In this document: positions 9,383-26,229 of the stretch, piece by piece
Position numbering within the stretch: the stretch's first letter is position 1
Layout of the letters: each line of letters starts with the position of its first letter
Assembly (NCBI GenBank): GCA_964593805.1
Contig: CAZQHP010000001.1
Span: 64,091-128,090, forward strand
Length of the DNA: 64,000 nt
Direction of reading: 5' to 3'
Source of the DNA: an uncultured Candidatus Saccharibacteria bacterium
GTDB lineage: Bacteria; Patescibacteriota; Saccharimonadia; Saccharimonadales; JBBQAJ01
Made by a program: the position numbers and the translations under genes
The notes under the pieces: generated by a model
The model's input: only the letters and a program-made list of their open reading frames with translations
The model's database searches: none
Told to the model about the DNA's origin: nothing

Positions 9383-9390
9383 AGAAGACA

Positions 9391-9726: not shown

Positions 9727-9742
9727 CCATTTCTGATCAGAG

Positions 9743-9774: not shown

Positions 9775-10206
9775 TTATTCAGTGGCCTTGGCAAGAACAA
9801 ATTTGACTACAACCTGAGCTAGTGCAACCACAACCAAGCCAATTATGGCGTACAGAATGGTGTTTTTGGCACCAGTTATGTTGCCGCTATCTCCACCAGA
9901 TGTAATGTACTTCAGACCACCAATGATAATCATGATGACCGAAACCACGCCCACGATTAGAGAAAATACATTGATAACCAGTTTTATGATTTGATCAACT
10001 CTACCGCCAGCTGCTGTGACGTCTGGTTGCGTACAAGTACTCGTACCAGCAGTTACCCCGCTAGTGCTGAGATCAACACCACAAGCTATCCCGCCGCTCA
10101 CGTCGTCAGTTGCTGCGTATACAGTTGCGACCGACATAGTAGCCGGCGCCAATAATAACGTTGCTAGTGATGCCGTTGTTAATAGTTTTTTTAGCTTTTT
10201 AATCAT
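9775..10206 (-). CDS. VirB2/TrbC-type T4SS pilin-like protein, paralogue 6 (last in operon)
   Basis: Signal peptide, a variable region with 2 Cys, then the conserved hairpin IMIIIGGLKYITSGGDSGNITGAKNTILYAIIGLVVVALAQVVV. Confidence 0.8.
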   Translation of the reverse strand: MIKKLKKLLTTASLATLLLAPATMSVATVYAATDDVSGGIACGVDLSTSGVTAGTSTCTQPDVTAAGGRVDQIIKLVINVFSLIVGVVSVIMIIIGGLKYITSGGDSGNITGAKNTILYAIIGLVVVALAQVVVKFVLAKATE

Positions 10207-10270
10207 TTTGGGGTGTGACCTTTCTTAAATTCTCTATCATTTATACCACAAACGCTTTATCAGATTCAAG

Positions 10271-10720
10271 CTACGGCGTGCAGCTAGTGGTCACTTTGCC
10301 GCCGCATTTAGGTAGAGCTGTTGATTTGGCGAGCACAAACTTTACTATCACCTGAGCCATAACAACTACCACCAAGCCGACTATGGCATAGAGAATGGTG
10401 TTTTTGGCGCTGGCAGTGTTGGAGCCTTCGCCTTGAGATAATATGTATTTGAGACCACCGACGATAATCATAATTATTGCCGCAACGCCTACAATCATGC
10501 TGAACACATTGATAGCTAATTTGAGAGTATTGTCCACATTTGGTCCGGGGACGGCAGTGTCACAATTGCCACTGTTGCCGGTACTGGCCTGCACTAGCGC
10601 CTCGCAGGCTTGGCTTTTGGGGTCAATCTGGGCGGCACGTACCTGTTTGCCAGAAAAACTTAGAAGGGTCGCCGTAAATACAAGTCCAATTACTGCAATA
10701 TGTATGATTCGTTTTAGCAT
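10271..10720 (-). CDS. VirB2/TrbC-type T4SS pilin-like protein, paralogue 5
   Basis: Signal peptide, 2 Cys in the variable region, hairpin IMIIVGGLKYILSQGEGSNTASAKNTILYAIVGLVVVVMAQ, and an extra C-terminal Cys pair (PKCGGKVTTSCTP). Confidence 0.8.
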   Translation of the reverse strand: MLKRIIHIAVIGLVFTATLLSFSGKQVRAAQIDPKSQACEALVQASTGNSGNCDTAVPGPNVDNTLKLAINVFSMIVGVAAIIMIIVGGLKYILSQGEGSNTASAKNTILYAIVGLVVVVMAQVIVKFVLAKSTALPKCGGKVTTSCTP

Positions 10721-10732
10721 TTCATCCTCATT

Positions 10733-11149
10733 TTACAATCTACTGACTGCCAAAGCTACTACAGCCCGAGCTATCACCACGATTACCAGCCCAATTACGG
10801 CAAACATTATAGTGTTTTTGGCCTTGTTTACCTTAGCACTGTCTCCGCTAGAACGTACATATTCAAACCCGCCAACTATTATGACAACTACGGCCGCTAT
10901 GCCGGTAATAAGCGCGAATATATTGGCAATCCTGGTTATCACGCCGTCCGTGCCGGTAATGGGGTTAGAGCCATCCGTAGAACAAACAACCGACTTCTGG
11001 CTTTGGCCGGTACTGTCGACTGCTTGCGGACAATCCTGTTTGACTTGACCAAATGGATCAAAGGCTGCTGCGCGGCTACCCGAAAAACCTATCACCAAGA
11101 ACAGAAAGGCTACGAACGATAAGCAAGCGGCAATTACGTATCTTTTCAT
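10733..11149 (-). CDS. VirB2/TrbC-type T4SS pilin-like protein, paralogue 4
   Basis: Signal peptide, 2 Cys in the variable region, hairpin VVIIVGGFEYVRSSGDSAKVNKAKNTIMFAVIGLVIVVIA. Confidence 0.8.
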   Translation of the reverse strand: MKRYVIAACLSFVAFLFLVIGFSGSRAAAFDPFGQVKQDCPQAVDSTGQSQKSVVCSTDGSNPITGTDGVITRIANIFALITGIAAVVVIIVGGFEYVRSSGDSAKVNKAKNTIMFAVIGLVIVVIARAVVALAVSRL

Positions 11150-11153
11150 TAAC

Positions 11154-11444
11154 TTATATTATGGCCCTTAGGAACACATTCACTATACCAAAAGCGCTGA
11201 AGGCAATCACCAAGCCAATCAGAGAATACATGATGATGTCTTTGGCTTTGCCCAATTTGTCCGGCTCCCCCTGCGATATCACGTACTTAAAGCCGCCATA
11301 CACCACACTGATAAACGCAATCCCCGCTAGTATGCCAAAAATCACATTGAATATAACTATAACCAACTTAGAATCTAGGCCAGCCTTTGGTAATGGACTT
11401 GTATCTATTGGTAATGCTGCAAGCAGTGCAAATATCAGCCCCAT
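11154..11444 (-). CDS. VirB2/TrbC-type T4SS pilin-like protein, paralogue 3 (minimal, 96 aa, no Cys)
   Basis: Hairpin ISVVYGGFKYVISQGEPDKLGKAKDIIMYSLIGLVIAFSA. The ATG abuts the upstream stop (TAG ATG). Confidence 0.78.
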   Translation of the reverse strand: MGLIFALLAALPIDTSPLPKAGLDSKLVIVIFNVIFGILAGIAFISVVYGGFKYVISQGEPDKLGKAKDIIMYSLIGLVIAFSAFGIVNVFLRAII

Positions 11445-11978
11445 CTAACCTCCTAATTTATTACCAATAAAAGCAACTAATGCCGTAGCGGTAACCACAA
11501 TACCAAGCCCGATTACCGAATTAACCAGAGTGGCCATAGCCGCTTCTATATTTTTGGGCTCGCCTTGGCTAGACATGTACTTATAGCCGCCCATAATTAT
11601 GAAGGCAACCGCAACCAACGCGCCCAAACGTAGCAAAATATCTATGATTGCCAAACCAATTTGTACAAGATGGTCGGTTAACTCACCGCCGATTATCCCG
11701 CATGTATTTTTAGTATTGTTACTGTCAATAAACGGATTGTCGGAAACTACTTCGCCATAGTCATCCCCAAAATATTTGTACCAACCAGGTAGAATACCCA
11801 GCAGTTTGTAGTCCTTGTCACACTTTATAGACCCAGCTGGTGCGGCAAATGCTGACTGGGCTGGGAGTATGCCAGTTATTGCTGGCAGGGCGGCAAGTAC
11901 AAGCCCGGCAGTTACAATTATGGCCAAAAGGACAATCTGGCGTTTTATGCTTTGTGCCAGATATTTCAGATATATCAT
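11445..11978 (-). CDS. VirB2/TrbC-type T4SS pilin-like protein, paralogue 2
   Basis: I moved the start to the ATG at 11978, which forms an ATGA overlap with the upstream stop. There are 2 Cys in the variable region and the hairpin IIMGGYKYMSSQGEPKNIEAAMATLVNSVIGLGIVV. Confidence 0.78.
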   Translation of the reverse strand: MIYLKYLAQSIKRQIVLLAIIVTAGLVLAALPAITGILPAQSAFAAPAGSIKCDKDYKLLGILPGWYKYFGDDYGEVVSDNPFIDSNNTKNTCGIIGGELTDHLVQIGLAIIDILLRLGALVAVAFIIMGGYKYMSSQGEPKNIEAAMATLVNSVIGLGIVVTATALVAFIGNKLGG

Positions 11979-12643
11979 AATATGCCCCCTGGCAACAGCC
12001 ATTGGGCAACAGCAAACAGCAGGCCGTATCCTACCAAAGTTAAAATAGCACTGAAAATGAGTTTTTTAGCCTTTTCTACCGCACCCGGATCGCTACCAGC
12101 CATTGAGTACTTAATACCGCCCACAATAATCATGCCGGTAACTACTATCCCGATTAGTGCACTTAGAAGTTTGATTGCGGTATTGATGTAGGTGAATAAG
12201 CCGCAAGCAGTGCTTTCTTGGCCTGTACAGGCAGTCCCGTGGGGCTGAGCTATACAGTTTTGTTTTTGTTCCGTCGTCCAGTCTTGAAAATCATCTGGTA
12301 AAGCAGCACAATCTAAGGGAGGGGCGGTCGAGTTTGGGGTAATGGCCGTGGGCAGAGGCGGTGGATTGCCAGTTGTATCGGTAAAATGCGCGTCTACTTG
12401 TCTCACACATTCAGCTATCGCATTATTATTGCCAGTGTTCGTCTCATAGCACGCCACGTTATATTTGTCTCGCTTGGAGCTTATGCAGTTTGCGATTTGG
12501 GTTGCGCCAGACCTGGGGTCGTCGCTACAAGTACCATGATCTGCTGACGCGGTTTGGCGACTCGGCGCAACAAACAGGGCAGACACAACTGCAACCAGAA
12601 CCACCAGCGCAAAAATTAATTTTTTGTGTTTTATTGATAACAT
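11975..12643 (-). CDS. VirB2/TrbC-type T4SS pilin-like protein, paralogue 1 (largest, 8-Cys ectodomain)
   Basis: Signal peptide, a roughly 140-aa variable region with 8 Cys, then the hairpin MIIVGGIKYSMAGSDPGAVEKAKKLIFSAILTLVGYGLL. Confidence 0.78.
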   Translation of the reverse strand: MLSIKHKKLIFALVVLVAVVSALFVAPSRQTASADHGTCSDDPRSGATQIANCISSKRDKYNVACYETNTGNNNAIAECVRQVDAHFTDTTGNPPPLPTAITPNSTAPPLDCAALPDDFQDWTTEQKQNCIAQPHGTACTGQESTACGLFTYINTAIKLLSALIGIVVTGMIIVGGIKYSMAGSDPGAVEKAKKLIFSAILTLVGYGLLFAVAQWLLPGGIL

Positions 12644-12829
12644 TTAACTAAACTATAATATCACTCCTTGCAAAAAACAAGGCTCTGCGCTACGACTCTG
12701 GCTTTAATTTGCAATGTGCGGATTCGCTTCAACCAAAGATTACGATTGCGCCTAAAAGTCGCAAACGACCTCTTGGCCAAGCCAAAGCTATCTTGTTTAT
12801 GGCTAGATTTTTTGCTTATATATAGGCAA

Positions 12830-15800
12830 ATGTATCGCAAATTGGTATCTCTTGTAGGCAGTGGGCTGATTTTGGTTTCAGTCTTTATGTCGCTGTTCGC
12901 TGCCGTACGCCCCATGCAGGCAAGCGCTACTTCGACGGAACCGCAGGACGAACAGAGGAGACTACTCGTTGCGTTTAAGTACTGTCTGAGCGATCAAAAA
13001 ATTGACGAAAGCGACAATGGCAACCCGGCTGAAGACTTTGCTGATATGTGGGATGGTGGCATTGATGGCTATAAGAAAGAGGACGTTGTGGTTGGGTTTG
13101 AACTTGAGGGTGATAACGGTGTTAAATCTTGTGAAACGAGCATTTTACCGGGGCTAAAAATTCTGGAACCTCAAATAACTACACCGGGTGCGGCCGAAAC
13201 TCGTTTGTTTGCTTTACTGGCCAATTCCGATGGGAAAGTTTTTAGAGCAAATAGGGATAAATTGGTCGCAAGAATAGACGACCAGATTAAATCTATGGGC
13301 TCCGACCCTAGGAAGGCATTTACCGCAAATCGCCTATCGCCGCTTATCACGCTTTGTTACGACATTAAAATAGACAAACCCTCCTACGAAGCGACAAATC
13401 AAAACTTTAGAGCTAAGTTCTTGGGAACACAATACTTTTTTGAGCACAAAAGCGATGCCGACGATGATAGCTATAAATGGCTCAAACAGGGGGCTATTGG
13501 GGAGAATGTTTTTCTGGGCGATATAAAACTAGGTTTTGAGTCATCGAAAAACGCGATAGGTAAGGGTGATTGGGATTCATTTGAAAGTGATTTCTACCCT
13601 TTTGGTTCGGACTTACAAAGTTTTACTAGTGGGCATGCCGGCAACAATGGTATTCTGGACTGTAAATTCATAAAAGAAAAAATGGAATCAGGCTTTTTCA
13701 CGGATGATGTTATATCTTCTGTGGATATAGATAAAGACATTGTAATAATTGGCGTAGACACCAACGGCGACGGCAAAGCCGATGTGGCACTTGATCCCGT
13801 AACCGTAGCCAGCGTAGATGCAGGTGGCGACACGCACGTGGATTGTCAAACTGGCGGGCTTTCTTTGAACCCTTTTACGCTAGCTGATAACGCCATTAGC
13901 TGGTTGCTGTGCCCTTTGCTTGATGGCGCTCAGGCGATTGTAAACACGGTTGGCGGCTGGGTGGTGGACCAGTTGGAATTTGATGTGGATCAATACCTTG
14001 TAGGACCGACAACCGATAAGAACGATGCAGAAATTTTCCCAGTCAAAGACGCCTGGAATGCCTTCAGGGTTATTTCGCTTTCACTCGTAATACTCGTGGC
14101 GCTGGCTGGCATATTAATGGGGAGTTTTATAGACGCTTATACTATAAAGAAGATACTGCCGCGCATGCTTATAGCCATAATTGCTATTTCGCTGTCGTGG
14201 GATCTGTTGGTGCTTGTTATAAGAATTACTAACTCGCTGGGTATTGCCGTCAGGTCAATGATAGATTTGCCATTCAATAGCCTGAACAATGCCGCCATAA
14301 ACCCGCTGGTTATTTTGGGTGGAGCAGGTGCCGCTACCGGGCTAACGACTATTTTGGGAGCACTAAGTCTTATTGGAACCGCGGCGCTGGCGGTACTTTT
14401 TGCGTTTATTTTCACGATACTGCGAGTTGGAGCAATCATTGCTTTGGTAATCTTTGCGCCGATAGCAATATTGTGCTGGATACTTCCAGGCACGCAAAAA
14501 GGCTGGAATTTCTGGCAAGAGGGCTTGATGGGAGCTTTGCTCATGTTCCCGATAGTAACGGCATTTTTGTCAATTGGTTCCGCTTTTGGGAAAATAATTT
14601 ATAACATTGAACCCAATAGCCCGCTCAACCAAACCATTGCCCTTATAGCCACCTATGCGCCATATTTCTTGATTCCCAAAGCCTTTAGCATGGCAGGCGG
14701 TATAGTTGGCAACCTTTCTGGCCAGCTAAATGATCGTGGTCGTGGCGCCTTTGACCGCCTCAAAAAATTCCGCCAAGACCAAGGCCAAAAACGCTGGGGT
14801 GATATCAAGGGTGGCAGATACTTTCACGGCGGCAATAAGGATAGTTTTAGAAGAAGAGTTAGTGGCATCGCACAAGGCGCCTCATTATTGCCTAATGCCG
14901 GACTTGGTCGCGATACAAGTAAATGGAAGGGTAAGTTGGATGACGCACGGTCCGTAGCCAGCCAAACCTATGCGTCAAAGGCTACGCAAGATGACGCCGC
15001 GAAGCTAGCTAGAGACAAAGATGACGCTATTATGAGAGCATTCATAGAATCTGGAGGTGACTTAGATGAAGCTGAAAAAGTATTAGTATCTAGTCAAGGT
15101 ACCGCCGATCTTTACGGTGGAGGTAAAAAAGCAGATGGAACATTATGGGAAGAAGGGACTGAGGCGTATAAACAAAACTGGGAGGCAAATAGAGGAGCTC
15201 GTGAATCTGCGTTACGTGGAATAGAGGCACTTAAAAAAGATTATGGCGCAGATACCGCAAAGCTTATAGCGGCAAGAACTCTTTTCAGGAGCTCGACCGC
15301 GTTTTCTTACGAGAATGGATTTGGTGAAATGGCGGAAATAATCAGAAAAGTAGCCACCAAGAGCGATGGTACAGTTGATACGCTTTTGGCTACACAGTTA
15401 CTTGAGGAAGGAAACGCTGCTCAAAATGCCGCTGGACGAAACGATGTGGGAGGTGCTAGCTTCTCTGTAGGTATAAAAGCAATTAACAATGTTGGTCGTC
15501 AAAAGATTAATGCTGACGGAACTCTATCCACTGAAATATATACTTCTCAAGATGCCACGCATGATGCTTGGGAATCTGCTTTTGGCGGCAAACCACCAGA
15601 CGAGGTCTTCCGAGGTGGGAAAAAGAAAAATGGTCAAGCAGTTTCTGGTTATTTGTATGGGTATACAGATGGTGCGGGCAATCATCACAAGGGTGAGGTA
15701 GAGATTCGGATGGAAAAACTTCAAGCAGATACCAGTCTAACTGAAGAACAGAGAGCTCAAGAAGCAACTCGCATATTGCAATGGGAAGAATCGTATCATG

Positions 15801-16192
15801 TTGCTGCATCTCGCTCTTCTGCTGATATTCGCGAAGTTATGGGTGCATCTTTCGGTGAAAAGTTTGATCATGATCTGTTGCCTCCAGAAATGCGTGAGAA
15901 AATCTTTACTAAACAAGTACCTGTTTTGCGGAATGGCGTCCCAGTAATGAAACAAGATCCAACTAAGCCAAAAGGGTTCATGATACCCGAAACAACTACT
16001 CAGTATGATCCAGATCTTGAGCTAACTCGTGTTGAGGTATTTGATAAACTTCGTGGTACCAAAGAATGGCAATTATATGCCAAAGAGTATGGGTATGCGG
16101 CGGCGGCGGCAGGAGCTAATGTCGCTGTTGCAGGCATAGAACCACCCCCAGTTGATCCAGGAGCTACTGGTGCAGGCGGAGGAGCACCTTAA
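12830..16192 (+). CDS. Giant VirB6/TrbL-like polytopic T4SS membrane protein (about 1120 aa) with large N- and C-terminal extensions
   Basis: I moved the start to the ATG at 12830 (MYRKLVSLVGSGLILVSVFMSLFAAVRPMQASA is a signal/anchor). The central block has at least 6 hydrophobic helices (AFRVISLSLVILVALAGILMG ... IALIATYAPYFLIPKAF). A hydrophilic tail of about 480 aa ends in an Ala/Gly/Pro-rich stretch. Confidence 0.7.
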   Translation: MYRKLVSLVGSGLILVSVFMSLFAAVRPMQASATSTEPQDEQRRLLVAFKYCLSDQKIDESDNGNPAEDFADMWDGGIDGYKKEDVVVGFELEGDNGVKSCETSILPGLKILEPQITTPGAAETRLFALLANSDGKVFRANRDKLVARIDDQIKSMGSDPRKAFTANRLSPLITLCYDIKIDKPSYEATNQNFRAKFLGTQYFFEHKSDADDDSYKWLKQGAIGENVFLGDIKLGFESSKNAIGKGDWDSFESDFYPFGSDLQSFTSGHAGNNGILDCKFIKEKMESGFFTDDVISSVDIDKDIVIIGVDTNGDGKADVALDPVTVASVDAGGDTHVDCQTGGLSLNPFTLADNAISWLLCPLLDGAQAIVNTVGGWVVDQLEFDVDQYLVGPTTDKNDAEIFPVKDAWNAFRVISLSLVILVALAGILMGSFIDAYTIKKILPRMLIAIIAISLSWDLLVLVIRITNSLGIAVRSMIDLPFNSLNNAAINPLVILGGAGAATGLTTILGALSLIGTAALAVLFAFIFTILRVGAIIALVIFAPIAILCWILPGTQKGWNFWQEGLMGALLMFPIVTAFLSIGSAFGKIIYNIEPNSPLNQTIALIATYAPYFLIPKAFSMAGGIVGNLSGQLNDRGRGAFDRLKKFRQDQGQKRWGDIKGGRYFHGGNKDSFRRRVSGIAQGASLLPNAGLGRDTSKWKGKLDDARSVASQTYASKATQDDAAKLARDKDDAIMRAFIESGGDLDEAEKVLVSSQGTADLYGGGKKADGTLWEEGTEAYKQNWEANRGARESALRGIEALKKDYGADTAKLIAARTLFRSSTAFSYENGFGEMAEIIRKVATKSDGTVDTLLATQLLEEGNAAQNAAGRNDVGGASFSVGIKAINNVGRQKINADGTLSTEIYTSQDATHDAWESAFGGKPPDEVFRGGKKKNGQAVSGYLYGYTDGAGNHHKGEVEIRMEKLQADTSLTEEQRAQEATRILQWEESYHVAASRSSADIREVMGASFGEKFDHDLLPPEMREKIFTKQVPVLRNGVPVMKQDPTKPKGFMIPETTTQYDPDLELTRVEVFDKLRGTKEWQLYAKEYGYAAAAAGANVAVAGIEPPPVDPGATGAGGGAP

Positions 16193-16220
16193 ACAACCAA
16201 AGATGTATACTTACTGATAT

Positions 16221-17306
16221 ATGGCTACGTACAAGGTAATTCAGGATATTGAGTCGGAAGACAAACTGCTGGGGCCGCTTACGCTGAGGCAATTTGTCTA
16301 TGCGGCTATTGTTGTGATGATGGGTTTCCTGGCTTTCAAACTGGCGGCGGTCAGCTCGCTGTTTGTTGTCCCGTTTATCTTGCCTATGGCATTTTTTAGC
16401 CTTTTGGCCGCGCCGTTCGGCCACGACCAATCGTCTGAGGTTTGGCTGCTGGCAAAAATTGGCTTTTTTCTAAAGCCGCGGCGGCGCATCTGGGACCAGG
16501 GCGGTATGCAAGAACTGGTGACCATAACGGCGCCTAAAAAACTGGAGCAGCACCTGACGGACGGACTGACTCAAATGGAAGTCAAAAGCCGTTTGCAAGC
16601 GCTGGCCAACACCATAGACAGCCGCGGCTGGGCCGTCAAAAACGTCAATGTGAATCTGTTTAACCAGCCGTCTTATTTGACCAGCGGCACAGGCTCTGAC
16701 CGTTTGGTAGATGGCAGCAGCCTGCCCCAAGCCGTGCCAAATTATGAAATCGTCGCGGCCGATGACATATTGGACGAAACGAGCAACCCGACCGCCCAGC
16801 ATCTGGACGCTATGATTAGCCAATCCGAACAGGCCCACCGCGAAACGCTGGTAGCGGCTGTGCGAAACGGTCCCCAGCCAGCAGCGCCGCCGGCAGATTA
16901 CTGGTTTATGAATCAGTCTGCCAGCCCTCCACAGCCAAAACCCGGCTATGCTACGTTTGACGGCGGCTCAACCATCGCGCCCGGGGCAACCCCGGCAGAT
17001 GATAGGCAAGTATCAGACTCTGGGACGGCAGAGCAGGAACTGCTAAACCAAATTCACCGTGAAAACTCCAGGCCAAACCCAGCCTACGGCCATATGCGCG
17101 TGCTTGATCCAGCCGGCGCTAAACAAACAAGCCAAGCCCCGCCAAGTGCCAACACTACCCCTATGCGGGCGCGGCAAGACAACGCCAAAGCCGACCTGGC
17201 ACGACTAGCGGCCAACGACGACTTAAACGTTTCTACTATTGCCAGAGAAGCCAACAAAGCCGCCAAACAGCCCCCGGATGACGAAGTAGTTATTAGCTTG
17301 CGCTAA
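16221..17306 (+). CDS. PrgI/VirB3-like membrane protein with a long low-complexity C-terminal extension
   Basis: The N-terminus VIQDIESEDKLLGPLTLRQFVYAAIVVMMGFLAFKLAAVSSLFVVPFILPMAFF resembles the PrgI-family pattern (acidic lead-in, LTLRQF, two TM helices). The rest is Pro/Ala/Gln-rich. Confidence 0.65.
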   Translation: MATYKVIQDIESEDKLLGPLTLRQFVYAAIVVMMGFLAFKLAAVSSLFVVPFILPMAFFSLLAAPFGHDQSSEVWLLAKIGFFLKPRRRIWDQGGMQELVTITAPKKLEQHLTDGLTQMEVKSRLQALANTIDSRGWAVKNVNVNLFNQPSYLTSGTGSDRLVDGSSLPQAVPNYEIVAADDILDETSNPTAQHLDAMISQSEQAHRETLVAAVRNGPQPAAPPADYWFMNQSASPPQPKPGYATFDGGSTIAPGATPADDRQVSDSGTAEQELLNQIHRENSRPNPAYGHMRVLDPAGAKQTSQAPPSANTTPMRARQDNAKADLARLAANDDLNVSTIAREANKAAKQPPDDEVVISLR

Positions 17307-17307
17307 T

Positions 17308-17340
17308 GAGTACTGAGCCGAGAGTCCTGAGTCCGGAGTC
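17308..17340. repeat. Arm of the inverted repeat enclosing the second four-helix-bundle gene
   Basis: GAGTACTGAGCCGAGAGTCCTGAGTCCGGAGTC matches the reverse complement of 17711-17746 at 29 of 33 positions. The perfect 15-nt core is GAGAGTCCTGAGTCC (17320-17334). Confidence 0.85.
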
Positions 17341-17689
17341 AAGAGGGAAGGCTTCGGATAAATCCTGCTAGTAACTTTGAAACTTCATCTGTCTTTTGTA
17401 GAAGTTCTGCTTGTTTTTCACGTTTTAGATAACCTAGATCTGGAGCAACCAAGAGCATTGATTCTACTTCTGCGGCAGAACCCTTGGCAATAGACAAAAA
17501 GTTTTTGAATGACTTGTCACTCCTTTTGGCATAACCTTCCGCTATATTGTTCATAATTGATATTGAAGCTCTTTGGATTTGATCCTTGAAGCCATAGTCC
17601 CGACAGTTTTGAAAGGATTTATAGATATCGACTGTCAAATCGTGCGCTTTCTGCCATGCCAATATATCTTTGAATGATCGAATAGCCAT
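17339..17689 (-). CDS. Four-helix-bundle protein (23S rRNA intervening-sequence protein / Avd-like family), second copy
   Basis: ILAWQKAHDLTVDIYK...FKDQIQRASISIMNNIAEGYAKRS...FLSIAKGSAAEVESML. It is a clear paralogue of the 9391-9726 protein. Confidence 0.85.
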   Translation of the reverse strand: MAIRSFKDILAWQKAHDLTVDIYKSFQNCRDYGFKDQIQRASISIMNNIAEGYAKRSDKSFKNFLSIAKGSAAEVESMLLVAPDLGYLKREKQAELLQKTDEVSKLLAGFIRSLPS

Positions 17690-17710
17690 TTCCCATATTC
17701 TAGCATTTTC

Positions 17711-17746
17711 CCGTACTCTGGACTCAGGACTCTCAGCTCTGTACTC
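17711..17746. repeat. Opposite arm of the inverted repeat enclosing the second four-helix-bundle gene
   Basis: CCGTACTCTGGACTCAGGACTCTCAGCTCTGTACTC. The core GGACTCAGGACTCTC is at 17720-17734. Confidence 0.85.
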
Positions 17747-17760
17747 TAAACGGCTTCGCC

Positions 17761-17769: not shown

Positions 17770-17825
17770 AAAGCGTAACTGTAATCATGCAAATGCATAC
17801 AAGACTTTAGGTGGGCCAAACATTC

Positions 17826-18844: not shown

Positions 18845-20770
18845 ATGGCATTTGGCAAACAAAACCCTCAGCTTGACCCAGTGGCACTGGCGCAGCAGCA
18901 GCAAATGCGCGAGCAACAAGAAGTGCAAGCCGCTTTCCAAAAAGGCGTTACGGCCCTGCGCGATTTTATAGCTCCAAGTTCATTGGTTTATAGTGCCAGT
19001 CATTTTCAGATTGGTACGCGCATAGCACGAACTTACTACATATACGGTTTTCCCAGGCAGGTTTTTACCGGCTGGCTGTCCAGTATGGTCAATATGGATG
19101 AGGTTATAGACCTGTCTATGTTTGTCTATCCGGTTGAAAGCCAGGTAGTACTAGAAAACTTGCGCAAAAAAGTTTCTCAGCTGGAAGCGGGCCTGCAAAT
19201 AGATGCCGAAAAAGGCCGCGTGCGCGACCCAGGCAAACAAGCAGCCATATCCGACGCTGAAGAAATGCGCGACAAGCTGCAGGTGGGTGAAGAGCGTTTT
19301 TTCCGCTTTGGTATTTATTTCACAATCTACGGTTCCTCCATGGATGAACTGGAGTTTGTGTCTCATAAAGTAGAATCCGTGCTGGGCCAGCAATTGGTGT
19401 ATTCCAAACCAGCCACTTCCCAGCAAGAACAGGGATTCAACAGTACTGTGCCGCAGTTTAGCGACCAGTTGCAGATAAAGCGCAATTTCAGCACCGGTGC
19501 ACTCAGCACCACTTTTCCGTTTACCAGCGCCGACTTAACTCAAGACACTGGAATCCTGTATGGCATAAATATGCACAATTCGGGGCTGGTCATCTTTGAC
19601 CGTTTCTCACTGGAAAATGGTAACTCAGTAGTGTTTGCCAAATCTGGCGCCGGCAAAAGTTTTACCGTCAAACTGGAAGCTTTACGCAGCATGATGTACG
19701 GCACAGAAATTTTCATAATTGACCCGGAAAACGAATACCAGCGCATGTCTGAAGCCGTAGGCGGCGCTTACGTTCGCCTTAGTTTAAATTCAAACGTCCG
19801 TATTAATCCGTTCGATTTGCCAAAAGTCGTGGACTCCGAGGAAGCCGACAACGCGCTTCGCAGCAACCTGATCACGCTGCATGGCTTGCTAAGGCTGATG
19901 ATGGGCGGCGCCCAGGCTCAAATGGCCGCAGCAGGCACCGGCGGCCAACCAGTCTACGCCCCAGCACTAACGCCTGCCGAAGAGGCAGATTTAGACTCGG
20001 CGCTGATAGAAACTTACGCCAAAGCCGGCATAACCAACGACCCGCTGACGCACAATTCCCAGCCGCCAACCGTGAACGATCTTTATGATACGCTGCTCCA
20101 TATGGGCGGCACGGGGCCGCAGCTGGCCCAGCGCCTGCGCAAATATACCACCGGAACCTTCGCTGGCATTTTCAGCCAGCAAAGCAACATAGACATCAAC
20201 AACCCGCTGGTGGTGTTTAACATTCGCGATTTGGAAGATGAACTGCGCCCCGTGGCCATGTACATCGTCCTGAACTTTATCTGGAACAAAACCAAGTCCG
20301 ACCAGAAAAAGCGCCTGTTGATAGTAGACGAAGCTTGGCAGTTGATGAAATACGAAGACTCGGCAAACTTTTTGTTCAGCTTGGCCAAACGCGCCCGTAA
20401 GTACAACTTAGGCATTACTACCATCACCCAGGACGTGGAAGATTTCATGGGCTCGCGCATGGGCCGGGCAATCGTGGCCAACGCCAGTTTGCAAATACTG
20501 CTCAAGCAGTCCAGTTCCGCGGTTGACGTCCTTTCAGACACTTTCAAACTGACCAGCGAGGAGAAAAAGCGTCTCAGCCAGTTCCCGGTAGGCCAGGGCT
20601 TATTCTTTGCCGGCCAAAACCACGTGCACATCCAGATTACTGCCAGCCCCACAGAAACCGGCCTAATCACCACCAACCCCCAGCAAGTACAAGCCATGGA
20701 GCAACAGGGCGAGTTGAATCAGCCTCAGGGAACCATAGACCTGCAAAACCGCTTAACGCCAGGTTTATAA
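18845..20770 (+). CDS. virB4: VirB4-family T4SS ATPase
   Basis: Walker A is AKSGAGKSFT, Walker B is RLLIVDEAWQL, and a late TTITQDVEDF motif is present. The N-terminal FIAPSS...YYIYGFPRQVFTGWLSSMV pattern is typical of VirB4. SD GAAGGAGG lies upstream. Confidence 0.88.
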   Translation: MAFGKQNPQLDPVALAQQQQMREQQEVQAAFQKGVTALRDFIAPSSLVYSASHFQIGTRIARTYYIYGFPRQVFTGWLSSMVNMDEVIDLSMFVYPVESQVVLENLRKKVSQLEAGLQIDAEKGRVRDPGKQAAISDAEEMRDKLQVGEERFFRFGIYFTIYGSSMDELEFVSHKVESVLGQQLVYSKPATSQQEQGFNSTVPQFSDQLQIKRNFSTGALSTTFPFTSADLTQDTGILYGINMHNSGLVIFDRFSLENGNSVVFAKSGAGKSFTVKLEALRSMMYGTEIFIIDPENEYQRMSEAVGGAYVRLSLNSNVRINPFDLPKVVDSEEADNALRSNLITLHGLLRLMMGGAQAQMAAAGTGGQPVYAPALTPAEEADLDSALIETYAKAGITNDPLTHNSQPPTVNDLYDTLLHMGGTGPQLAQRLRKYTTGTFAGIFSQQSNIDINNPLVVFNIRDLEDELRPVAMYIVLNFIWNKTKSDQKKRLLIVDEAWQLMKYEDSANFLFSLAKRARKYNLGITTITQDVEDFMGSRMGRAIVANASLQILLKQSSSAVDVLSDTFKLTSEEKKRLSQFPVGQGLFFAGQNHVHIQITASPTETGLITTNPQQVQAMEQQGELNQPQGTIDLQNRLTPGL

Positions 20771-20779
20771 TGATTTGGC

Positions 20780-23416
20780 GTGAGGAAACAAGACATCGTG
20801 AGCAGTAACGACCTCTTGGACGAGGAAGAGAAGGCTGGCCAGCATGATAATCTGGGTGTTCACCCTGAGCACCGTGAAGCTGAGGCCGACGAACTGGAAA
20901 ATCTTTATAATGCTTCGTCTGCTGTCGGATCTCAAGACGATGGCCAGATACCTTATCGTGATGAAGGTAAAAAAATTAGCCGTATATCTCGGGCGCGCGC
21001 CAGGCTTAAAAACCCTAGACTAAATAAACGCATAGGAGTTTTAGTTCTTGGCTCAACTGGGATAGCTCTTATTGGTCTTATTTTATTGATGTTGTTTATG
21101 ATTAATAGTCTTAAGCTGCAAAACCTTGCCGCCCATATTACCGAGCAAAATTTAACTCGTCTCTTCCGTGACAATAAAAACGCAACCGAAAATGCTATGG
21201 CAGAAAGCCTTGGTAAAGATGTCGAAAACCAAACAGGCAGAAGTCTAGTTAGGAACCTCAAAGATCAATACGGGAATCTCCGCAGTTCCACCTGGGGAAA
21301 GCTTGACGCCATACGGCCGCAAAAGGTTTTGGATAACCTGCATAGCGGGGGTCAAATCGAATACGTCTACAACGAGGTGGAGCGAGGATTTTTACCAGGC
21401 AAGAAACTAGTCCTAAGCGAAGTAAGAATTAACGGGGAATCTATCACGGTAGCCGATGAAAGATTTGGACGCGTTTTTTCCAATACCGGCGAGCGCATTC
21501 GTTTCAGCCAAGAAGCAGGCGCGGCTTTCAAGCGAGCTACGCCCGAAACCTTTGGCATTATTCGTAGCCGAGCGTATAGCAAGTTGCTGGATGGACTGGG
21601 TATTAAACTACGCCTGTGGGAAAAATTAGCAGTAGGCTTTAAAGGAAAAAGTGTCCAAGAAGCATTTAGCCTGCAACAACAACAAATTGCCGAAAAGACT
21701 TACAAAGGTAGCCAAGTCGAAGGAAGCACGGTAAACGAAGTAAAGAAGGGTGCAGAGGGCACAGAGTCAAGAATAAAAGATACCATAAAAAATACTGAAG
21801 GCGACGAATTTAAACTTGGTAGATTCAAGCAGTCTCTCGAGAACACAAAAATTAAAGTCACTACATACAAAGATAGCGTTAGAACTAGCATAGAAAGCAC
21901 GCTTGGCGCACAGGGAACAAGTAATTTAGTTAAAGCTGCTAGTACGGTCAGTGGTATTTATAAAATTGCTTTCCCGGTGTGTTTAATATATGACGGTTCA
22001 GTAGTAAACAATGCTGGCCCAATAGACGATAAAAGCCGAGCACTTCAGAGCGAAGGATACCAAATTTTGTCGGGGTCTGACCAAACGAAAGTGGGTGCAA
22101 CCGTGCCTGAAGCACGGGGTGCATTTGACAACAAACTGGGCAATATATCCTCATCGGTGCCTGAGCGTATTGCTAGGGGTGAAGTTGTTGATACGTCAAA
22201 AGTACTTACAGGCCCGGACCGACCGCAAGCTGGCGGCAACGGAAGTCTGTCTACAGATACAGAAAGCATACTGACAGCTACTGTTGGTAGTAATGTAGTC
22301 GTTGATAATCTTGATGCGGTTGTGCAAAAGATTTGTCCAATAGTTACTAAGCCAGAGATCATACTTGTTGACGTTGCGCTTCAGGTACTGCTCGCAACAT
22401 TAACGGGCGGAACAAGTGCGGCGGCCGAACAAGGAGCAATAGAAGGAGTGGAGCGAACAACCTCTATTTTAGCCGCCAATGCGGGTTCAGAACTTGCCGA
22501 ACAAATTGCAGTTCAAGGAACATCGCAAGCACTAAAACAAGTTGCCGAAAGAACTCTTGCTCAAAAAGTAAAAGGATTGATTGTAAGGATAGGTGCTCAA
22601 ACAGCCGCCATAACGGGTGTTACATATCTGGCCAAAATGCAGGTGCTTAATCGAACCAGTGGTACTTACGTAGGATTGGATGGCGGTAACGATTATGCTA
22701 CGCAGGGTGCGGTCGGTGCGGAACTCAATATGAACGAAGGGGAACGCCAGGTTGCCATGGGCAGAATACAGACTCCTGAAGAAATTGAACAAAATGATAA
22801 ACTTGACCTTGCCTACCTGAACCAGAAGACTGCTGAAAAAAGTCCGTTTGAGCGTTATTTTGCCGTCAGCAATCCAAATTCACTGGTAACACTCACGGGT
22901 AGCTGGGTGCTGGGGAAATCTCATAATATATTGCAGCCCGGACAAATTAGCCAGTTCTTTTCCGGTATTTTTAAGGGTGTGGGCTCGACTTTTGCGAGTC
23001 TGGCTAGCAAGCCATTTAACGGCACGGTTCGAGCCGCCGCCCCTATAGATAGACATTACGGCATCATCCAGTGGGGTTGGTCTGCGGAAGAAAACAATTT
23101 AGCCGACAATGACCCCCGCTACGGCATGCTTGCAAACGCAGAATACTGGGAACAATCAGTATCCGAACAATCGAAAAAAGATATACAGGAAAAGTATGGT
23201 GTTTGTTTTACAGATTCCATTGGTACGCTACTCAAAGATGGAAAAATTAAACGCGATGAAAGCGGCACGGTTACCGGTGGCGCCTGCAAACCTGAAAACC
23301 TAGGCCCCAATAACCCTGAGGGTTTTGGAGATCTCGTCTTTCGCTATCGCTTATTCAATCGCTACAACAATGTATTGGACAATTTGGGCGATATCCAGAA
23401 CGTAGGTAGCCAGTAA
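20780..23416 (+). CDS. Large (878 aa) single-pass membrane-anchored protein of unknown function, T4SS-linked
   Basis: Continuous ORF with a GTG start. An acidic cytoplasmic N-terminus is followed by one TM (IGVLVLGSTGIALIGLILLMLFMI) and a roughly 760-aa ectodomain. No family recognised. Confidence 0.65.
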   Translation: MRKQDIVSSNDLLDEEEKAGQHDNLGVHPEHREAEADELENLYNASSAVGSQDDGQIPYRDEGKKISRISRARARLKNPRLNKRIGVLVLGSTGIALIGLILLMLFMINSLKLQNLAAHITEQNLTRLFRDNKNATENAMAESLGKDVENQTGRSLVRNLKDQYGNLRSSTWGKLDAIRPQKVLDNLHSGGQIEYVYNEVERGFLPGKKLVLSEVRINGESITVADERFGRVFSNTGERIRFSQEAGAAFKRATPETFGIIRSRAYSKLLDGLGIKLRLWEKLAVGFKGKSVQEAFSLQQQQIAEKTYKGSQVEGSTVNEVKKGAEGTESRIKDTIKNTEGDEFKLGRFKQSLENTKIKVTTYKDSVRTSIESTLGAQGTSNLVKAASTVSGIYKIAFPVCLIYDGSVVNNAGPIDDKSRALQSEGYQILSGSDQTKVGATVPEARGAFDNKLGNISSSVPERIARGEVVDTSKVLTGPDRPQAGGNGSLSTDTESILTATVGSNVVVDNLDAVVQKICPIVTKPEIILVDVALQVLLATLTGGTSAAAEQGAIEGVERTTSILAANAGSELAEQIAVQGTSQALKQVAERTLAQKVKGLIVRIGAQTAAITGVTYLAKMQVLNRTSGTYVGLDGGNDYATQGAVGAELNMNEGERQVAMGRIQTPEEIEQNDKLDLAYLNQKTAEKSPFERYFAVSNPNSLVTLTGSWVLGKSHNILQPGQISQFFSGIFKGVGSTFASLASKPFNGTVRAAAPIDRHYGIIQWGWSAEENNLADNDPRYGMLANAEYWEQSVSEQSKKDIQEKYGVCFTDSIGTLLKDGKIKRDESGTVTGGACKPENLGPNNPEGFGDLVFRYRLFNRYNNVLDNLGDIQNVGSQ

Positions 23417-24603
23417 TGTTACGCCGACTTTTGTCCTGCTTGGCAATTGTATTGATACTTATGCCTTCCGTAGCGCAAGCACAACTTACTCAGGGCGATC
23501 TGGGATCAATACTAGGTGGTACGGAATTCTACGATCCAGTTGCCGAAAATTGCTCGGCGGTAGGTACAACTGCTCTGTCCGGCAGCGACAAAGCCGCTAA
23601 AGTTTACTACTATTTGACTGGCAGGGGGCTGTCTCCCGAACAAGCCGCCGGTGTTATGGGGAATCTTGAACCGGAATCCGGATTTATACCCGATAACCAA
23701 GAAAATAATATACCTTTCCCAAATGGCGGGTGGGGTATTGCCCAGTGGACCGCCGGACGGCGCGATTCACTTGTGTCTGCCGTTTTAGCGGTCGGGCTGC
23801 CGTATACGAACGAACAAACCCCGCCAGACCAAATGGATGCATTATTAGCCTTTGAATTAGACTATCTTTACAACGAATCAAATGGACGCCAATCCAGAAC
23901 ATATCCGGATATAAAGGAGTGGGAGGGGTTAAAACGGCAGACTACTGCCAAAGACGCGGCTTATTACTGGGAATATAATTTTGAGCGTCCGAAAGTAGCT
24001 GGACAACAAATTAGAATCGATGCCGCTGAAAAGTTTTTGGCGCAGTTTGGCGGGGCAACAAGTTCTGGCGCAATCGCAACGGGCTGTAGTGCTTCGCTGG
24101 GAGGAACTGCGGGCGCTAGCGCAGACCAAGATACTTCTGCGATGCAGTGCCCTGCCGGTACAACCGATGCGGGCGTTGTACAAGACTATGGGCCAGGCAG
24201 GGTTCCAACTGTCAAAATCCGGCTGTGTGATCTGCCGACAGTTACCCAAGTGAACGCCAGCATTACCCAAGCCGCGCTAGATATGGTTACCGCCATAGAA
24301 AAGGCCGGTCTTGAGGTTTCTGGCGATGCATGGCGATCATATGACGAACAGGCGGCTTTAAGGGACAGCAACGGCTGCCCAGACGTTGACATCAGTCCAT
24401 CAAGTTCATGTAGAGTTCCTACAGCTAAGGCTGGTTCTGGTACACATGAAGTGGGATTAGCAATTGACTTCAACGACATGTGCTTCCCAAATGCAACCTG
24501 TCCTTCTAGCGCGGCCTGGCGGTGGTTGATGGAAAATGGCGGTACGTACGGATTCAAGAAAAACTCCGACGAGGCCTGGCATTGGTCTCCAACAGGCAAC
24601 TAG
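23416..24603 (+). CDS. Secreted bifunctional cell-wall hydrolase: lysozyme-like domain plus VanY/M15-type peptidase domain (VirB1 analogue)
   Basis: Signal peptide MLRRLLSCLAIVLILMPSVAQAQ. AAGVMGNLEPESGF...GWGIAQWTAGRR is a phage-tail-lysozyme-like pattern. The C-terminal SGDAWRSYDEQ...GSGTHEVGLAIDF...EAWHW shows the HxxxxxxD...H zinc ligands of M15 peptidases. There is a 1-nt overlap with the upstream stop. Confidence 0.75.
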   Translation: MLRRLLSCLAIVLILMPSVAQAQLTQGDLGSILGGTEFYDPVAENCSAVGTTALSGSDKAAKVYYYLTGRGLSPEQAAGVMGNLEPESGFIPDNQENNIPFPNGGWGIAQWTAGRRDSLVSAVLAVGLPYTNEQTPPDQMDALLAFELDYLYNESNGRQSRTYPDIKEWEGLKRQTTAKDAAYYWEYNFERPKVAGQQIRIDAAEKFLAQFGGATSSGAIATGCSASLGGTAGASADQDTSAMQCPAGTTDAGVVQDYGPGRVPTVKIRLCDLPTVTQVNASITQAALDMVTAIEKAGLEVSGDAWRSYDEQAALRDSNGCPDVDISPSSSCRVPTAKAGSGTHEVGLAIDFNDMCFPNATCPSSAAWRWLMENGGTYGFKKNSDEAWHWSPTGN

Positions 24604-24621
24604 TAAAAGAAGGGTAGTTAA

Positions 24622-26229
24622 ATGGAAAATATATTCAAACCAGATATAAGCAACCCGGCAGACCCGCGGCGAAAACTGGTAATTTTTGGCTTGTTGATTG
24701 TTGCGGTTTTCACGCTGATTTTTTTGGTGGTTAAATTTTATGGTACCGGCCGCATAACTTTAAGCCTGCCAAATAATAAACAGCCGCTGACCGTGGAGAT
24801 TTTCAAACAGTCTAACGGCGAAAGGGCGGCTTTGGAAAAGGTACAGGGCGATAGTTTCAGTAAATTTCTCCCAGCTGGGTCGTATGAGATACGTGTTTTT
24901 TCTGCAGATAACCAAGCCGTTTCATACCTTGCATCGGTACCAAGATTTTTCCGTACTACTACCAAAACTGCGACGCTACAGAACCAGTCCGGGCGCCAGA
25001 AACTGGCAAGAGACGTATCGAGCTGCCCGGTGTTAGTAGGTGAACAACTGTATTCTTTTACTTGCGGCTGGTCCAATGTGATTTCTCGTCACACGCCTTT
25101 GACGGCAGAAAAGTACTCAGCACGCCAGGATTTCCCGGTTAGCGGCGTAGTCGCTGCCAAATCTTATCGTGACGGCATGCTAGCACTGAGAATTTTAAGC
25201 GGACAAGCAAATTCACCAATAACACCGGTCATTAGTTTCATAAAAAACGGAGTGGTGGTAAGCAGTAAAACTCTACCGGCGAGTTTTGCTAGTACTGATT
25301 CGTCCAATAATCCTGATTATCAACTGGTTATTGATAGAAAAAATCACACTGGTTTCGTAGTCGTAAAGAAAGCTGCTAGCGTTGAGATCGCGAGCTTCAA
25401 AAGCTTTGAGTCCGACGCGGTAACCAGAAAGGTAGAGTTTACCGGCTTAGAACTGGACCGCCTAGCAAGTTCAACCGATTTGTACGATGATCAGTTTTTG
25501 ATAGCCGTTGGAAAATCCGGCAATCCAGTTCATGAACCCGGCGGCAAGAAAGACACCAAGCCTTTGGCTACGGTCGTCCGTATTATTGATACAAAAAGCC
25601 AAGACGCACCATCCACGGACTATAAGATTAACGAGCCCTTTAGCAAGGTAAGTTTTTGCGGGACACAAGATGTCTGCATTCTACGCGACAATAAGCTCAC
25701 CGTGTATATGAAATCCGCCGGCAAACTTCTAGCGCGTGGATCAATTAACAGCGTGGATAAATTTATAGTAATTGACGGCTCAACTGTGGCATATTTACAA
25801 GACAAAAGAGTCTATAGACTTAATACAGACGACCTCGGCGCAACTATGTTGTACGCCTCGGACCATTTTACTGTTACCGACATTTTCACTTCGGGGAACG
25901 CACTTGTCATGAACGCTAGTTTGCCGAGCGCTACGAACCAGGAAATCACCCACACGTTCCTGCTAGGGTTAAGCCCGGCTGAAAGCAAAGACTTTGTTGA
26001 TGACAAATTGCCTTATAGCAAAGACCGTTATGTTTGGGACATGGATTATAGCGGCAAAACGATACTCGCTACACTAATTCTGAACAGTTCTACTTTTGAT
26101 AGAGCAACCAGCACAATCAGTTACGACCAGGCCGAATATGCCGGTGCCGCAAAGCAGCTGACTGAACGGTTAGCAAAAGATGGCTTCAGCGCGCCAGAAT
26201 ATACAATTAAGTTTATCGTAAGCTACTAA
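24622..26229 (+). CDS. Membrane-anchored 535-aa protein of unknown function, last gene of the T4SS-like locus
   Basis: N-terminal anchor KLVIFGLLIVAVFTLIFLVVKF followed by a beta-rich-looking ectodomain. No family recognised. Confidence 0.62.
   Translation: MENIFKPDISNPADPRRKLVIFGLLIVAVFTLIFLVVKFYGTGRITLSLPNNKQPLTVEIFKQSNGERAALEKVQGDSFSKFLPAGSYEIRVFSADNQAVSYLASVPRFFRTTTKTATLQNQSGRQKLARDVSSCPVLVGEQLYSFTCGWSNVISRHTPLTAEKYSARQDFPVSGVVAAKSYRDGMLALRILSGQANSPITPVISFIKNGVVVSSKTLPASFASTDSSNNPDYQLVIDRKNHTGFVVVKKAASVEIASFKSFESDAVTRKVEFTGLELDRLASSTDLYDDQFLIAVGKSGNPVHEPGGKKDTKPLATVVRIIDTKSQDAPSTDYKINEPFSKVSFCGTQDVCILRDNKLTVYMKSAGKLLARGSINSVDKFIVIDGSTVAYLQDKRVYRLNTDDLGATMLYASDHFTVTDIFTSGNALVMNASLPSATNQEITHTFLLGLSPAESKDFVDDKLPYSKDRYVWDMDYSGKTILATLILNSSTFDRATSTISYDQAEYAGAAKQLTERLAKDGFSAPEYTIKFIVSY

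Follow-up and report, generated by a model that had tools for sequence, protein, structure and literature searches.

A chromosomal type IV secretion system beside the dnaA region of an uncultured Saccharimonadales bacterium, with a conserved motor and fast-diverging surface proteins

The type IV secretion systems (T4SSs) of Saccharibacteria, and of Patescibacteria more widely, have been the subject of several recent studies. McLean 2020 reported that Saccharibacteria share a conserved region in which VirB4, VirB6 and PrgI are accompanied by an array of 4-6 small proteins bearing Sec signals (PMC7427843). In Candidatus Southlakia epibionticum, the transposon sequencing (Tn-seq) of Wang 2023 found SEML1_0006-0019 to be essential for growth on the host; the locus includes six essential pilins and is without a recognisable coupling protein or relaxase (PMC10633639). 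Starting from its right side, the order there is dnaA-dnaN-recF, two small exported proteins, a lysozyme protein and a protein of 1113 amino acids (aa) with a C-terminal M15 domain, followed by VirB4, a 293-aa protein, PrgI, a VirB6-like protein, an NTF2-like protein, another VirB6-like protein, six pilins, Hsp20, ComF and tRNA-Ser (PMC10633639). Quinonero-Coronel 2025 surveyed 2,474 Patescibacteria virB4 genes and described a clade related to MPF-FATA with TrsD, PrgI and VirB6, VirB2 arrays of 2-11 genes in 383 assemblies, proximity to dnaA/dnaN and a near absence of relaxases (PMC12102498). A December 2025 review sums up the Patescibacteria T4SS work (PMC12857230). The T4SS locus presented here occupies positions 9775-26229 of a 64-kb stretch (the window) of a 776,748-bp metagenomic contig, which comes from an uncultured metagenome-assembled genome (MAG) of a Saccharimonadales bacterium. 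It is ~16.5 kb long, densely coding and arranged as two divergent units.

Since gene order, flanks and family membership are all the same, the locus can be considered orthologous to the S. epibionticum T4SS; by these comparisons it is a chromosomal, vertically inherited T4SS of Saccharimonadia and the orthologue of SEML1_0004-0019. Both lie between dnaA-dnaN-recF and Hsp20-ComF-tRNA-Ser, and both encode surface proteins, a lysozyme hydrolase, a large protein, VirB4, a TrsD-like protein of ~300 aa, PrgI, a VirB6-like protein and six divergent PF18895 pilins, with no relaxase or coupling protein in the locus. There are also differences. The window has one VirB6-like gene, whereas S. epibionticum has two with an NTF2-like (VirB8-fold) gene between them. 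The M15 domain, C-terminal on the large protein in S. epibionticum, is carried here by a separate 395-aa hydrolase, a single 535-aa protein fills the last slot instead of two small proteins of ~210-250 aa (prealbumin/PEGA-like), and two 23S_rRNA_IVP (IVP) cassettes are inserted in the window locus. Essentiality has been shown for S. epibionticum alone. The likeness extends to the T4SSs of the Patescibacteria clade and TM7x, which share an MPF-FATA-related VirB4, an adjacent TrsD, PrgI, a VirB2 array, the lack of a relaxase and a position near dnaA/dnaN/rnpA (PMC12102498, PMC7427843); nothing essential differs and the window is one more instance. A preliminary description of this DNA had regarded the locus as a poorly described system, yet publications already cover its architecture, its pilin arrays, its proximity to oriC and the lack of a relaxase and a coupling protein, as well as essentiality by Tn-seq in a cultured relative. 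The new details are the TrsD identity of a 305-aa protein, the enzyme tails found in the family of the large protein (hereafter X), the fold of the last surface protein (hereafter Y) and a contrast in conservation between motor and surface; the X family, its polymorphic tails and this contrast are not described in the part of the 2025 survey that is accessible (PMC12102498).

The contrast in conservation becomes clear when the locus is compared with its relatives. One genome per species was searched by tblastn, which gave 548 positive stretches; comparisons use the best 80 of the 548, all of them from Saccharimonadales/Saccharibacteria MAGs, and the window's own contig brings the set to 81 loci. 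Most of these 80 species-level genomes have the same gene order between hsp20 and recF-dnaN-dnaA where contigs reach. VirB4 is 83-95% identical across the 80 genomes and the TrsD-like protein 63-88% (median 73%), so that both are as conserved as DnaA (74%) and DnaN (68%) or more so, which is unusual for a secretion gene and consistent with essentiality. The pilins reach 35-51% identity and PrgI ~46%. X, the hydrolase and Y are mostly undetectable by tblastn in relatives and show 23-36% identity in global alignments with positional orthologues, compared with 91-94% for VirB4 and 82-93% for DnaN in the same pairs. Over the 80 genomes, identity in the slots of the VirB6-like protein, X, the hydrolase and Y drops to about 25%. 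Against the nearest relative, nucleotide homology ends at the virB4 stop (20771) and resumes at recF (26241), and it is also lost across the VirB6-like gene. Because virB4 nucleotide identity is ~80% and the relatives are therefore not close, the contrast points to a difference in selection and need not involve recent cassette exchange. The cytoplasmic motor is thus under very strong purifying selection, whereas selection on the parts exposed outside the membrane is very weak or diversifying, a pattern that would be expected for a conserved motor with variable, host-facing surfaces.

The motor is encoded in two pieces. The VirB4 ATPase (18845-20770, plus strand, 641 aa) is without an N-terminal domain and matches P-loop_TraG (E 1.9e-27), AAA_10, PDB entry 4ag5 (E 1.8e-48) and NCBIfam NF045971 (VirB4-like, CD1110 family; 346 bits against a cut-off of 325), the last over model positions 176-734 of 752. 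Its Walker A (KSGAGKS) and Walker B (LLIVDEAW) motifs, on which it had been called a VirB4 ATPase, are both readable, and the profile matches bear out that call. By the same matches it is a VirB4 of the MPF-FATA-related type, with a weak NCBIfam similarity to CedB/CedD as well. The 305-aa protein (17826-18743, plus strand) had been listed as a 306-aa product of no family, but NCBIfam identifies it as a homologue of TrsD, that is, a free-standing VirB4 N-terminal domain, here behind a Pro/Gln-rich leader. Residues ~60-208 align to TrsD/TraD at E 2.8e-6, below that family's own cut-off. Three VirB4 models are matched as well, in each case near their N-terminus (98-255 of 894 in VirB4_plasma, 2-102 of 752 in CD1110 and 18-137 of 792 in the third), and the precomputed annotation PF26593 (TraC-like) agrees. 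Since this protein aligns to the N-terminal parts of VirB4 and the ATPase covers only positions 176-734 of 752, VirB4 is, on these alignments, split into an N-domain protein and an ATPase as in pGO1-type systems. TrsD beside virB4 is likewise noted for Patescibacteria in the 2025 survey (PMC12102498).

The divergent unit on the minus strand (9775-12604) consists of six ORFs (open reading frames) of 96-209 aa. All six score above the Pfam gathering threshold of PF18895 T4SS_pilin (E 3e-7 to 2e-12), as expected of the VirB2-type pilins they had been taken for, and several also touch TrbC/VirB2. All carry a pair of hydrophobic helices at the C-terminus, and in most of them a signal-like segment is present at the N-terminus. 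Pairwise identity is 27-61%, making this a sequence-divergent array. Pilin 1 (9775-10206, 143 aa; PF18895 E 1.9e-12) has a signal peptide and hydrophobic helices at residues 70-105 and 110-143, and weakly matches the Mycoplasma pilin-like family NF045849 (NCBIfam), which is found in integrative and conjugative elements (ICEs). Pilin 2 (10271-10720, 149 aa; PF18895 E 1e-10, TrbC/VirB2 E 7e-4) is 61% identical to pilin 1, and pilin 3 (10733-11149, 138 aa; E 1e-9) completes a set of closer paralogues with 37-61% identity. They are followed by the short form, pilin 4 (11154-11444, 96 aa; E 1.6e-10), by pilin 5 (11445-11978, 177 aa from the called start; E 7.4e-9) and by the long form, pilin 6 (11975-12604, 209 aa; E 3.2e-7), which has a Cys-rich N-terminal ectodomain. 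In most related loci slot 4 is an ORF of ~90-118 aa, and 42 of 50 complete arrays preserve the order of slot 4 (at that size), slot 5 and the long slot 6. This retention of order and size suggests that the pilins have distinct structural roles rather than being simple antigenic copies. Between the pilin operon and the machine operon is an intergenic region (12605-12829) in which a near-consensus TTGATA-N17-TATAAT can be read on the plus strand; the region shows no conservation in relatives, and promoter-like sites there are no commoner than chance.

The machine operon begins with an extended VirB6-like polytopic protein (12830-16192, plus strand, 1120 aa), the least secure component of the system. 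Its layout is that of an "extended VirB6", with a signal or anchor at residues 4-31, an ectodomain of ~375 aa (~32-406), 5-6 transmembrane (TM) helices at 407-590 and a hydrophilic C-terminal domain of 530 aa. Among relatives it is conserved only over residues ~300-750, with ~30% identity in the TM core. Local Pfam hmmscan, even at E = 10, and NCBIfam give no match; PF04610 TrbL is touched in only 3 of 41 relatives (E ~0.004), and the family profile reaches R388 VirB6 (TrwI) in the PDB at a sub-threshold E of 0.96. The protein is accepted as VirB6-like on the basis of the precomputed PF19590 (TrbL_3) annotation, its topology, its position before prgI and its S. epibionticum counterparts, which were assigned VirB6 by structure (PMC10633639). 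Thus the expected polytopic protein of about 1120 aa is present, while significance in local profile searches was not reached. Care must be taken with negative Pfam results for T4SS parts, as local hmmscan against Pfam-A reproduced neither of the precomputed annotations, PF19590 and PF26593, and both models are probably missing from the copy used. The PrgI/VirB3-like membrane protein (16221-17306, plus strand, 361 aa, with a long low-complexity C-terminal tail) is more straightforward: PF12666 matches at E 7.6e-10, and its 39.6 bits exceed the cut-off of 27, in keeping with the earlier call. PrgI was detected in 76 of the 81 loci, with a median identity of 46%. In 15 relatives, bitopic ORFs of ~290-400 aa lie ahead of the VirB6-like gene. 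These ORFs are possible VirB8 analogues, and they were compared with the window in case one of them had become fused to VirB6 as its N-terminal ectodomain; no similarity to the window proteins was found.

Protein X (20798-23416, plus strand) is a large membrane protein of the SEML1_0007-type family. With the hydrolase and Y it makes up an envelope module that follows the membrane engine. It had been listed as an 878-aa protein with no family; there is still no Pfam, NCBIfam or PDB sequence-profile match, though the start is more likely at 20798, giving 872 aa. It has a basic N-terminal tail, a TM segment at ~77-110, an ectodomain, a hydrophobic segment at ~515-540 and a C-terminal domain, and the family alignment has invariant cysteines at C395 and C513 in the long mid region and at C803 and C830 in the C-terminal domain. 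An AlphaFold2 (AF2) model from six sequences was poor (mean predicted local distance difference test score, pLDDT, of 37), and Foldseek found nothing below E = 4. A positional orthologue directly follows virB4 in 74 of the 81 loci by iterated hidden Markov model search. A second word-indexed search with the X alignment returned the same five proteins, and an exhaustive profile search of representatives was therefore used; it found 667 X-family cluster representatives, 354 of them with E < 1e-30. Among the 150 best-scoring representatives, 76 extend past the core, and clustering together with Pfam on representatives reveals at least 9 unrelated domain types in these extensions. The most frequent are VanY/M15 (36) and Exo_endo_phos (EEP; 15), followed by M23-like (6), M74 (3) and CHAP (3), with M14, GH5 and GH16/ConA-like (2 each) and singletons being rarer. 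Some of the EEP tails are doubled and linked with a tyrosine phosphatase or with a PLC-like phosphoesterase. A conserved N-terminal carrier with interchangeable C-terminal enzymes is thus true of the X family, but the window copy is without an extension or enzyme tail. About 30 X orthologues in the 81 loci bear an M15 tail, whereas in the window the M15 domain lies on the adjacent 395-aa hydrolase. Elsewhere in the window, at 4032-4946, is a 304-aa EEP protein with a hydrophobic N-terminal segment, the same enzyme family as 15 of the 76 X tails.

These tails raise the possibility that X is a T4SS-coupled carrier of a polymorphic, host-directed module for breaching envelopes, going beyond a housekeeping analogue of VirB1/PrgK. 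The proposal is tentative, and we regard it as rather less likely to be right than wrong. Under it, both the enzymes and their equally fast-evolving partners (the hydrolase, the surface protein and the ectodomain of VirB6) would be tailored to the wall chemistry of the particular host; in this way they would determine host range and breach the host envelope, so that the T4SS could extract host material. A literature search of partial coverage found no paper on the X family as a T4SS-coupled carrier of polymorphic enzymes.

Downstream of X is a secreted cell-wall hydrolase (23416-24603, plus strand, 395 aa). Its signal peptide and its matches to PF18013 Phage_lysozyme2 (E 1.9e-24) and PF02557 (E 8.7e-9) agree with the lysozyme-like plus M15 (VanY) architecture read from it earlier, and NCBIfam adds an LdcB-like match at E 4e-4. 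The last gene of the locus encodes the membrane-anchored surface protein Y (24622-26229, plus strand, 535 aa), with a TM segment at 15-39, a transthyretin/PEGA-like beta-sandwich at 42-116, a beta-propeller at ~176-450 and a small C-terminal alpha/beta domain. The AF2 model has a pLDDT of 64 and a predicted template modelling score (pTM) of 0.53. Foldseek against the PDB returned hundreds of beta-propellers at probability 1.0 with template modelling scores (TM-scores) of ~0.3, and matches at such low TM-scores support the fold class alone. At the level of fold class, then, the modelled Y is a membrane-anchored beta-sandwich plus beta-propeller protein. It had been said to belong to no nameable family, and at the sequence level this stands: the PDB sequence-profile search with the Y family gave no match, and Pfam gave a weak NOMO transthyretin-like match at E 0.05. 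What has changed is that a fold class can now be modelled. The Y family fills the last slot in only 17 of the 81 loci; elsewhere, one or two proteins of ~190-270 aa are found. The last-slot proteins of S. epibionticum are prealbumin-like and PEGA/Ig-like (immunoglobulin-like), and score as essential (PMC10633639).

Comparison with better-known T4SSs can help in understanding what such a machine might do. MPF-FATA systems, such as Trs of pGO1/pSK41, Prg/Pcf of pCF10, CTn2 of C. difficile and the Mycoplasma ICE, share with the window a CD1110-family VirB4 and PrgI, as well as a membrane-anchored wall hydrolase of several domains beside virB4, analogous to PrgK/TraG. The split-off TrsD/TraD-type N-domain is shared with pGO1, and the weak pilin match to the Mycoplasma ICE is to the pilin-like family Mbov_0395. 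However, the window locus has no relaxase, coupling protein, detected VirB8-like protein or PrgB-type surface adhesin, and it differs further in having six VirB2-type pilins, in being fixed at oriC and in being essential in a relative. T4SSs that work without a coupling protein include Bordetella Ptl (toxin export), H. pylori ComB and archaeal Ced (DNA import). Like these, the locus has no VirD4-type receptor; its VirB4 is weakly similar to CedB/CedD, and its comF-like neighbour is conserved. Unlike it, they are diderm (Ptl, ComB) or archaeal and have other accessory sets.

The best explanation overall, with a probability of roughly 0.75, is that the locus encodes an S. epibionticum-type T4SS that serves the epibiont-host interface as a coupling-protein-independent conduit. 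Such a conduit is favoured because a coupling protein is not linked to the locus and, according to the 2025 survey, the coupling protein is non-essential in S. epibionticum (PMC12102498). VirB4/TrsD would dock on PrgI and the VirB6-like channel and, as diderm T4SSs do, pull Sec-inserted pilins out of the membrane to build a pilus or tube of the VirB2 type. X and the hydrolase may open peptidoglycan locally, that of the cell itself and, it is suspected, also that of the host, while host-specific contact could be made by VirB6, X, Y and the pilins through their ectodomains, which evolve fast. As to direction, extraction or uptake of host material (nucleic acids, nucleotides) is put forward over effector injection, at somewhat short of an even chance; the lean towards uptake arises because canonical export of cytoplasmic substrates needs a receptor ATPase that is missing here. 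ComB and Ced, which do without a coupling protein, are likewise importers (of DNA). The T4SS has been named as a candidate route of nucleotide acquisition in S. epibionticum, in which ComEC is dispensable (PMC11665869). Competence in this species needs ComEC, which can be lost, and the T4SS is essential (PMC12857230). Tubular structures at the parasite-host interface of an RNA-feeding parasite have also been read as possible T4SS pili (bioRxiv 10.64898/2026.06.21.733656).

Several points weigh against the conduit as proposed. The direction of transport is wholly inferential, and a 2024 perspective calls the role of the Patescibacteria T4SS "completely unknown". The VirB6 assignment is weak at the sequence level, and for a VirB8-like (NTF2-fold) component there is no Pfam or NCBIfam match and no candidate ORF in the locus. 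The filament built of these pilins is a predicted one. The topology of X, and hence the placing of its C-terminus outside, is deduced only from the peptidoglycan-hydrolase tails of its relatives. Finally, the absence of a coupling protein holds for 64 kb of a 776,748-bp contig, and a distal VirD4 homologue may exist; in the 2025 survey, VirD4 homologues are common in Patescibacteria and usually lie far from virB4 (PMC12102498).

Other explanations must be weighed against these considerations. The locus could be an ordinary or decaying ICE that has recently lost its relaxase, coupling protein and integrase, or has them at some distance from the window. Its VirB4 does belong to the conjugative CD1110/MPF-FATA-type family, tRNA genes lie ~2 kb from the locus edge, and relaxases are recorded in a minority of Patescibacteria (PMC12102498). 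Yet a Pfam scan that took in every window ORF of at least 90 aa beside those of the locus found no VirD4/TcpA-type coupling protein, relaxase, VirB11, VirB9/10 or integrase in the 64 kb, and the outer-membrane core VirB7/9/10 has no Pfam match anywhere in the window. The tRNA 3' ends, including that of tRNA-Ser, have no repeat outside the tRNA genes, and no other boundary repeat that could mark an attachment (att) site was found in the window. The preliminary description had already noted the lack of a VirD4-type ATPase, relaxase, VirB11, VirB7/9/10, integrase and repeat of the tRNA-Ser 3' end. Moreover, GC content in the locus (0.46-0.51) is like that of the flanks, with no compositional island; VirB4 is under very strong purifying selection (94% aa identity at 80% nucleotide identity); S. 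epibionticum and dozens of species-level genomes have the locus at the identical site with identical flanks; and in S. epibionticum, a cultured relative, it is essential (PMC10633639). One chromosomal site across many species argues for vertical inheritance and not an ICE, and this conserved site, with no linked relaxase, coupling protein, integrase or att, indicates that the machine does not mobilise itself. An ICE is thus very improbable, and the idea of a chromosomally fixed, non-conjugative surface or cell-cell machine gains support from the shared site and from published work (PMC10633639, PMC12102498).

A second possibility is the export of effectors or toxins onto or into the host bacterium, similar to Bordetella Ptl or the bacteria-killing T4SS of Xanthomonas, with the Sec-exported hydrolases and the enzyme tails of the X family as candidate cargo. 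Ptl-like export has been put forward for the small secreted array (McLean 2020, PMC7427843), and Wang 2023 suggested possible protein export (PMC10633639). The EEP, tyrosine phosphatase, PLC-like phosphoesterase, GH5 and GH16 tails of X relatives would be superfluous for remodelling the cell's own wall, and the surface parts diverge extremely fast. On the other hand, the "secreted array" turns out to be bona fide VirB2-type pilins rather than toxins, the window has no coupling protein to recruit cytoplasmic substrates, and its X has no enzyme tail. In addition, ~50 of the 76 tails are ordinary peptidoglycan peptidases, such as VirB1/PrgK-type proteins of T4SSs use on their own wall, and no immunity-like gene turned up, although none was searched for. 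Export is therefore an unlikely reading, if one to be taken seriously. Less probable still is a pure adhesion or contact filament, in which the VirB4 engine builds a tethering pilus and nothing passes through. The main role of conjugative pili is attachment, which favours a tether, as do the six conserved pilin slots, of which 4-6 hold their order and size across species, and the surface beta-propeller protein encoded in the locus. However, the conserved wall-hydrolase module and the extended VirB6 channel protein would be hard to justify in a mere tether, and Saccharibacteria already adhere and move by means of two type IV pilus systems (PMC12206443).

Few machines besides the Patescibacteria T4SS are known to be indispensable to the epibiotic life of a huge, mostly uncultured radiation. 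The window leaves this picture as it was and confirms the published architecture in another lineage. It also offers leads for genetics, namely the split VirB4, the motor conserved above DnaA beside surface parts that are nearly unalignable between sister species, and the 667-representative family with swappable tails. These leads indicate the likely host-contacting parts, and the domains to mutate first in S. epibionticum or N. lyticus.

The chromosomal surroundings are those of a replication region. The right edge of the locus is adjoined directly by recF, dnaN and dnaA (26234-30007, minus strand; Pfam), with rnpA, yidC and jag beyond. DnaA-box-like clusters lie on either side of dnaA (28428-28541 and 30229-30332), each with three 9-mers at one mismatch to TTATCCACA; the whole window has 27 such sites against 14 expected. 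This is the probable oriC region beside which the locus lies. On the left are tRNA-Ser, a ComF-like phosphoribosyltransferase (7842-8516, minus strand) and Hsp20 (8871-9353), together spanning 7727-9353, as in S. epibionticum. The rest of the left part is housekeeping in character: with these genes it holds valyl-tRNA synthetase (ValRS), HIT, the EEP-family protein and four tRNAs. Rfam over the window returned four tRNAs and nothing else, and promoter- and terminator-like sites showed no enrichment over shuffles. The right part has the replication and membrane-insertion genes and then a polysaccharide/glycosyltransferase cluster of ~27 kb.

Two IVP cassettes are found within or at the edge of the locus but stand outside the machine. 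The one inside (17308-17746, minus strand) carries a four-helix-bundle 23S_rRNA_IVP gene (17339-17689, 116 aa; PF05635 E 2.5e-36; TIGR02436) between the arms of a 32-nucleotide inverted repeat (17308-17339/17715-17746, 91% complementary); in most relatives there is no IVP gene at this place between prgI and trsD. The second cassette (9352-9773, plus strand), whose gene (9391-9726, 111 aa; PF05635 E 7.1e-36) had been overlooked in the preliminary description, is flanked by a 31-nucleotide inverted repeat (9352-9382/9743-9773, 87% complementary). The two proteins are 50% identical, and the repeats resemble the stems around rRNA intervening sequences. IVP genes occur in 8 related loci, after prgI, between trsD and virB4, after virB4 or between recF and dnaN, and flanking inverted repeats are present in 4 of 6 IVP genes of relatives that were checked. 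An IVP gene with its inverted repeats looks like a small mobile cassette.

A few further genes in the window deserve mention. Just past jag/yidC, the gene at 32660-33274 encodes 204 aa with an IS200-type Y1 transposase domain (PF01797 E 1.3e-8) and is the sole transposase- or recombinase-like gene in the window. It is followed by a 926-aa protein (33341-36121, minus strand) that is anchored at its N-terminus and, by a hydrophobic segment, at its C-terminus; between the anchors lie a central GDSL/SGNH hydrolase domain and a low-complexity region rich in Pro/Thr. The protein by this layout is probably a large surface esterase. Further to the right, at ~41000-56000, the genes for polysaccharide and ABC-2 (Wzm/Wzt-type) export and for glycosyltransferases have a GC content of 0.40-0.45, against 0.46-0.51 elsewhere, and may form a variable or horizontally exchanged surface-glycan island. 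Within this cluster is a 654-aa secreted protein (46584-48548, minus strand) that combines an Ig-like domain with several lectin repeats of the D-mannose-binding (bulb-type) kind. At the opposite end of the window, a single ORF (2406-3260, minus strand) fuses an N-terminal helix-turn-helix domain of the Cro/C1 type to a HAD-family hydrolase domain.

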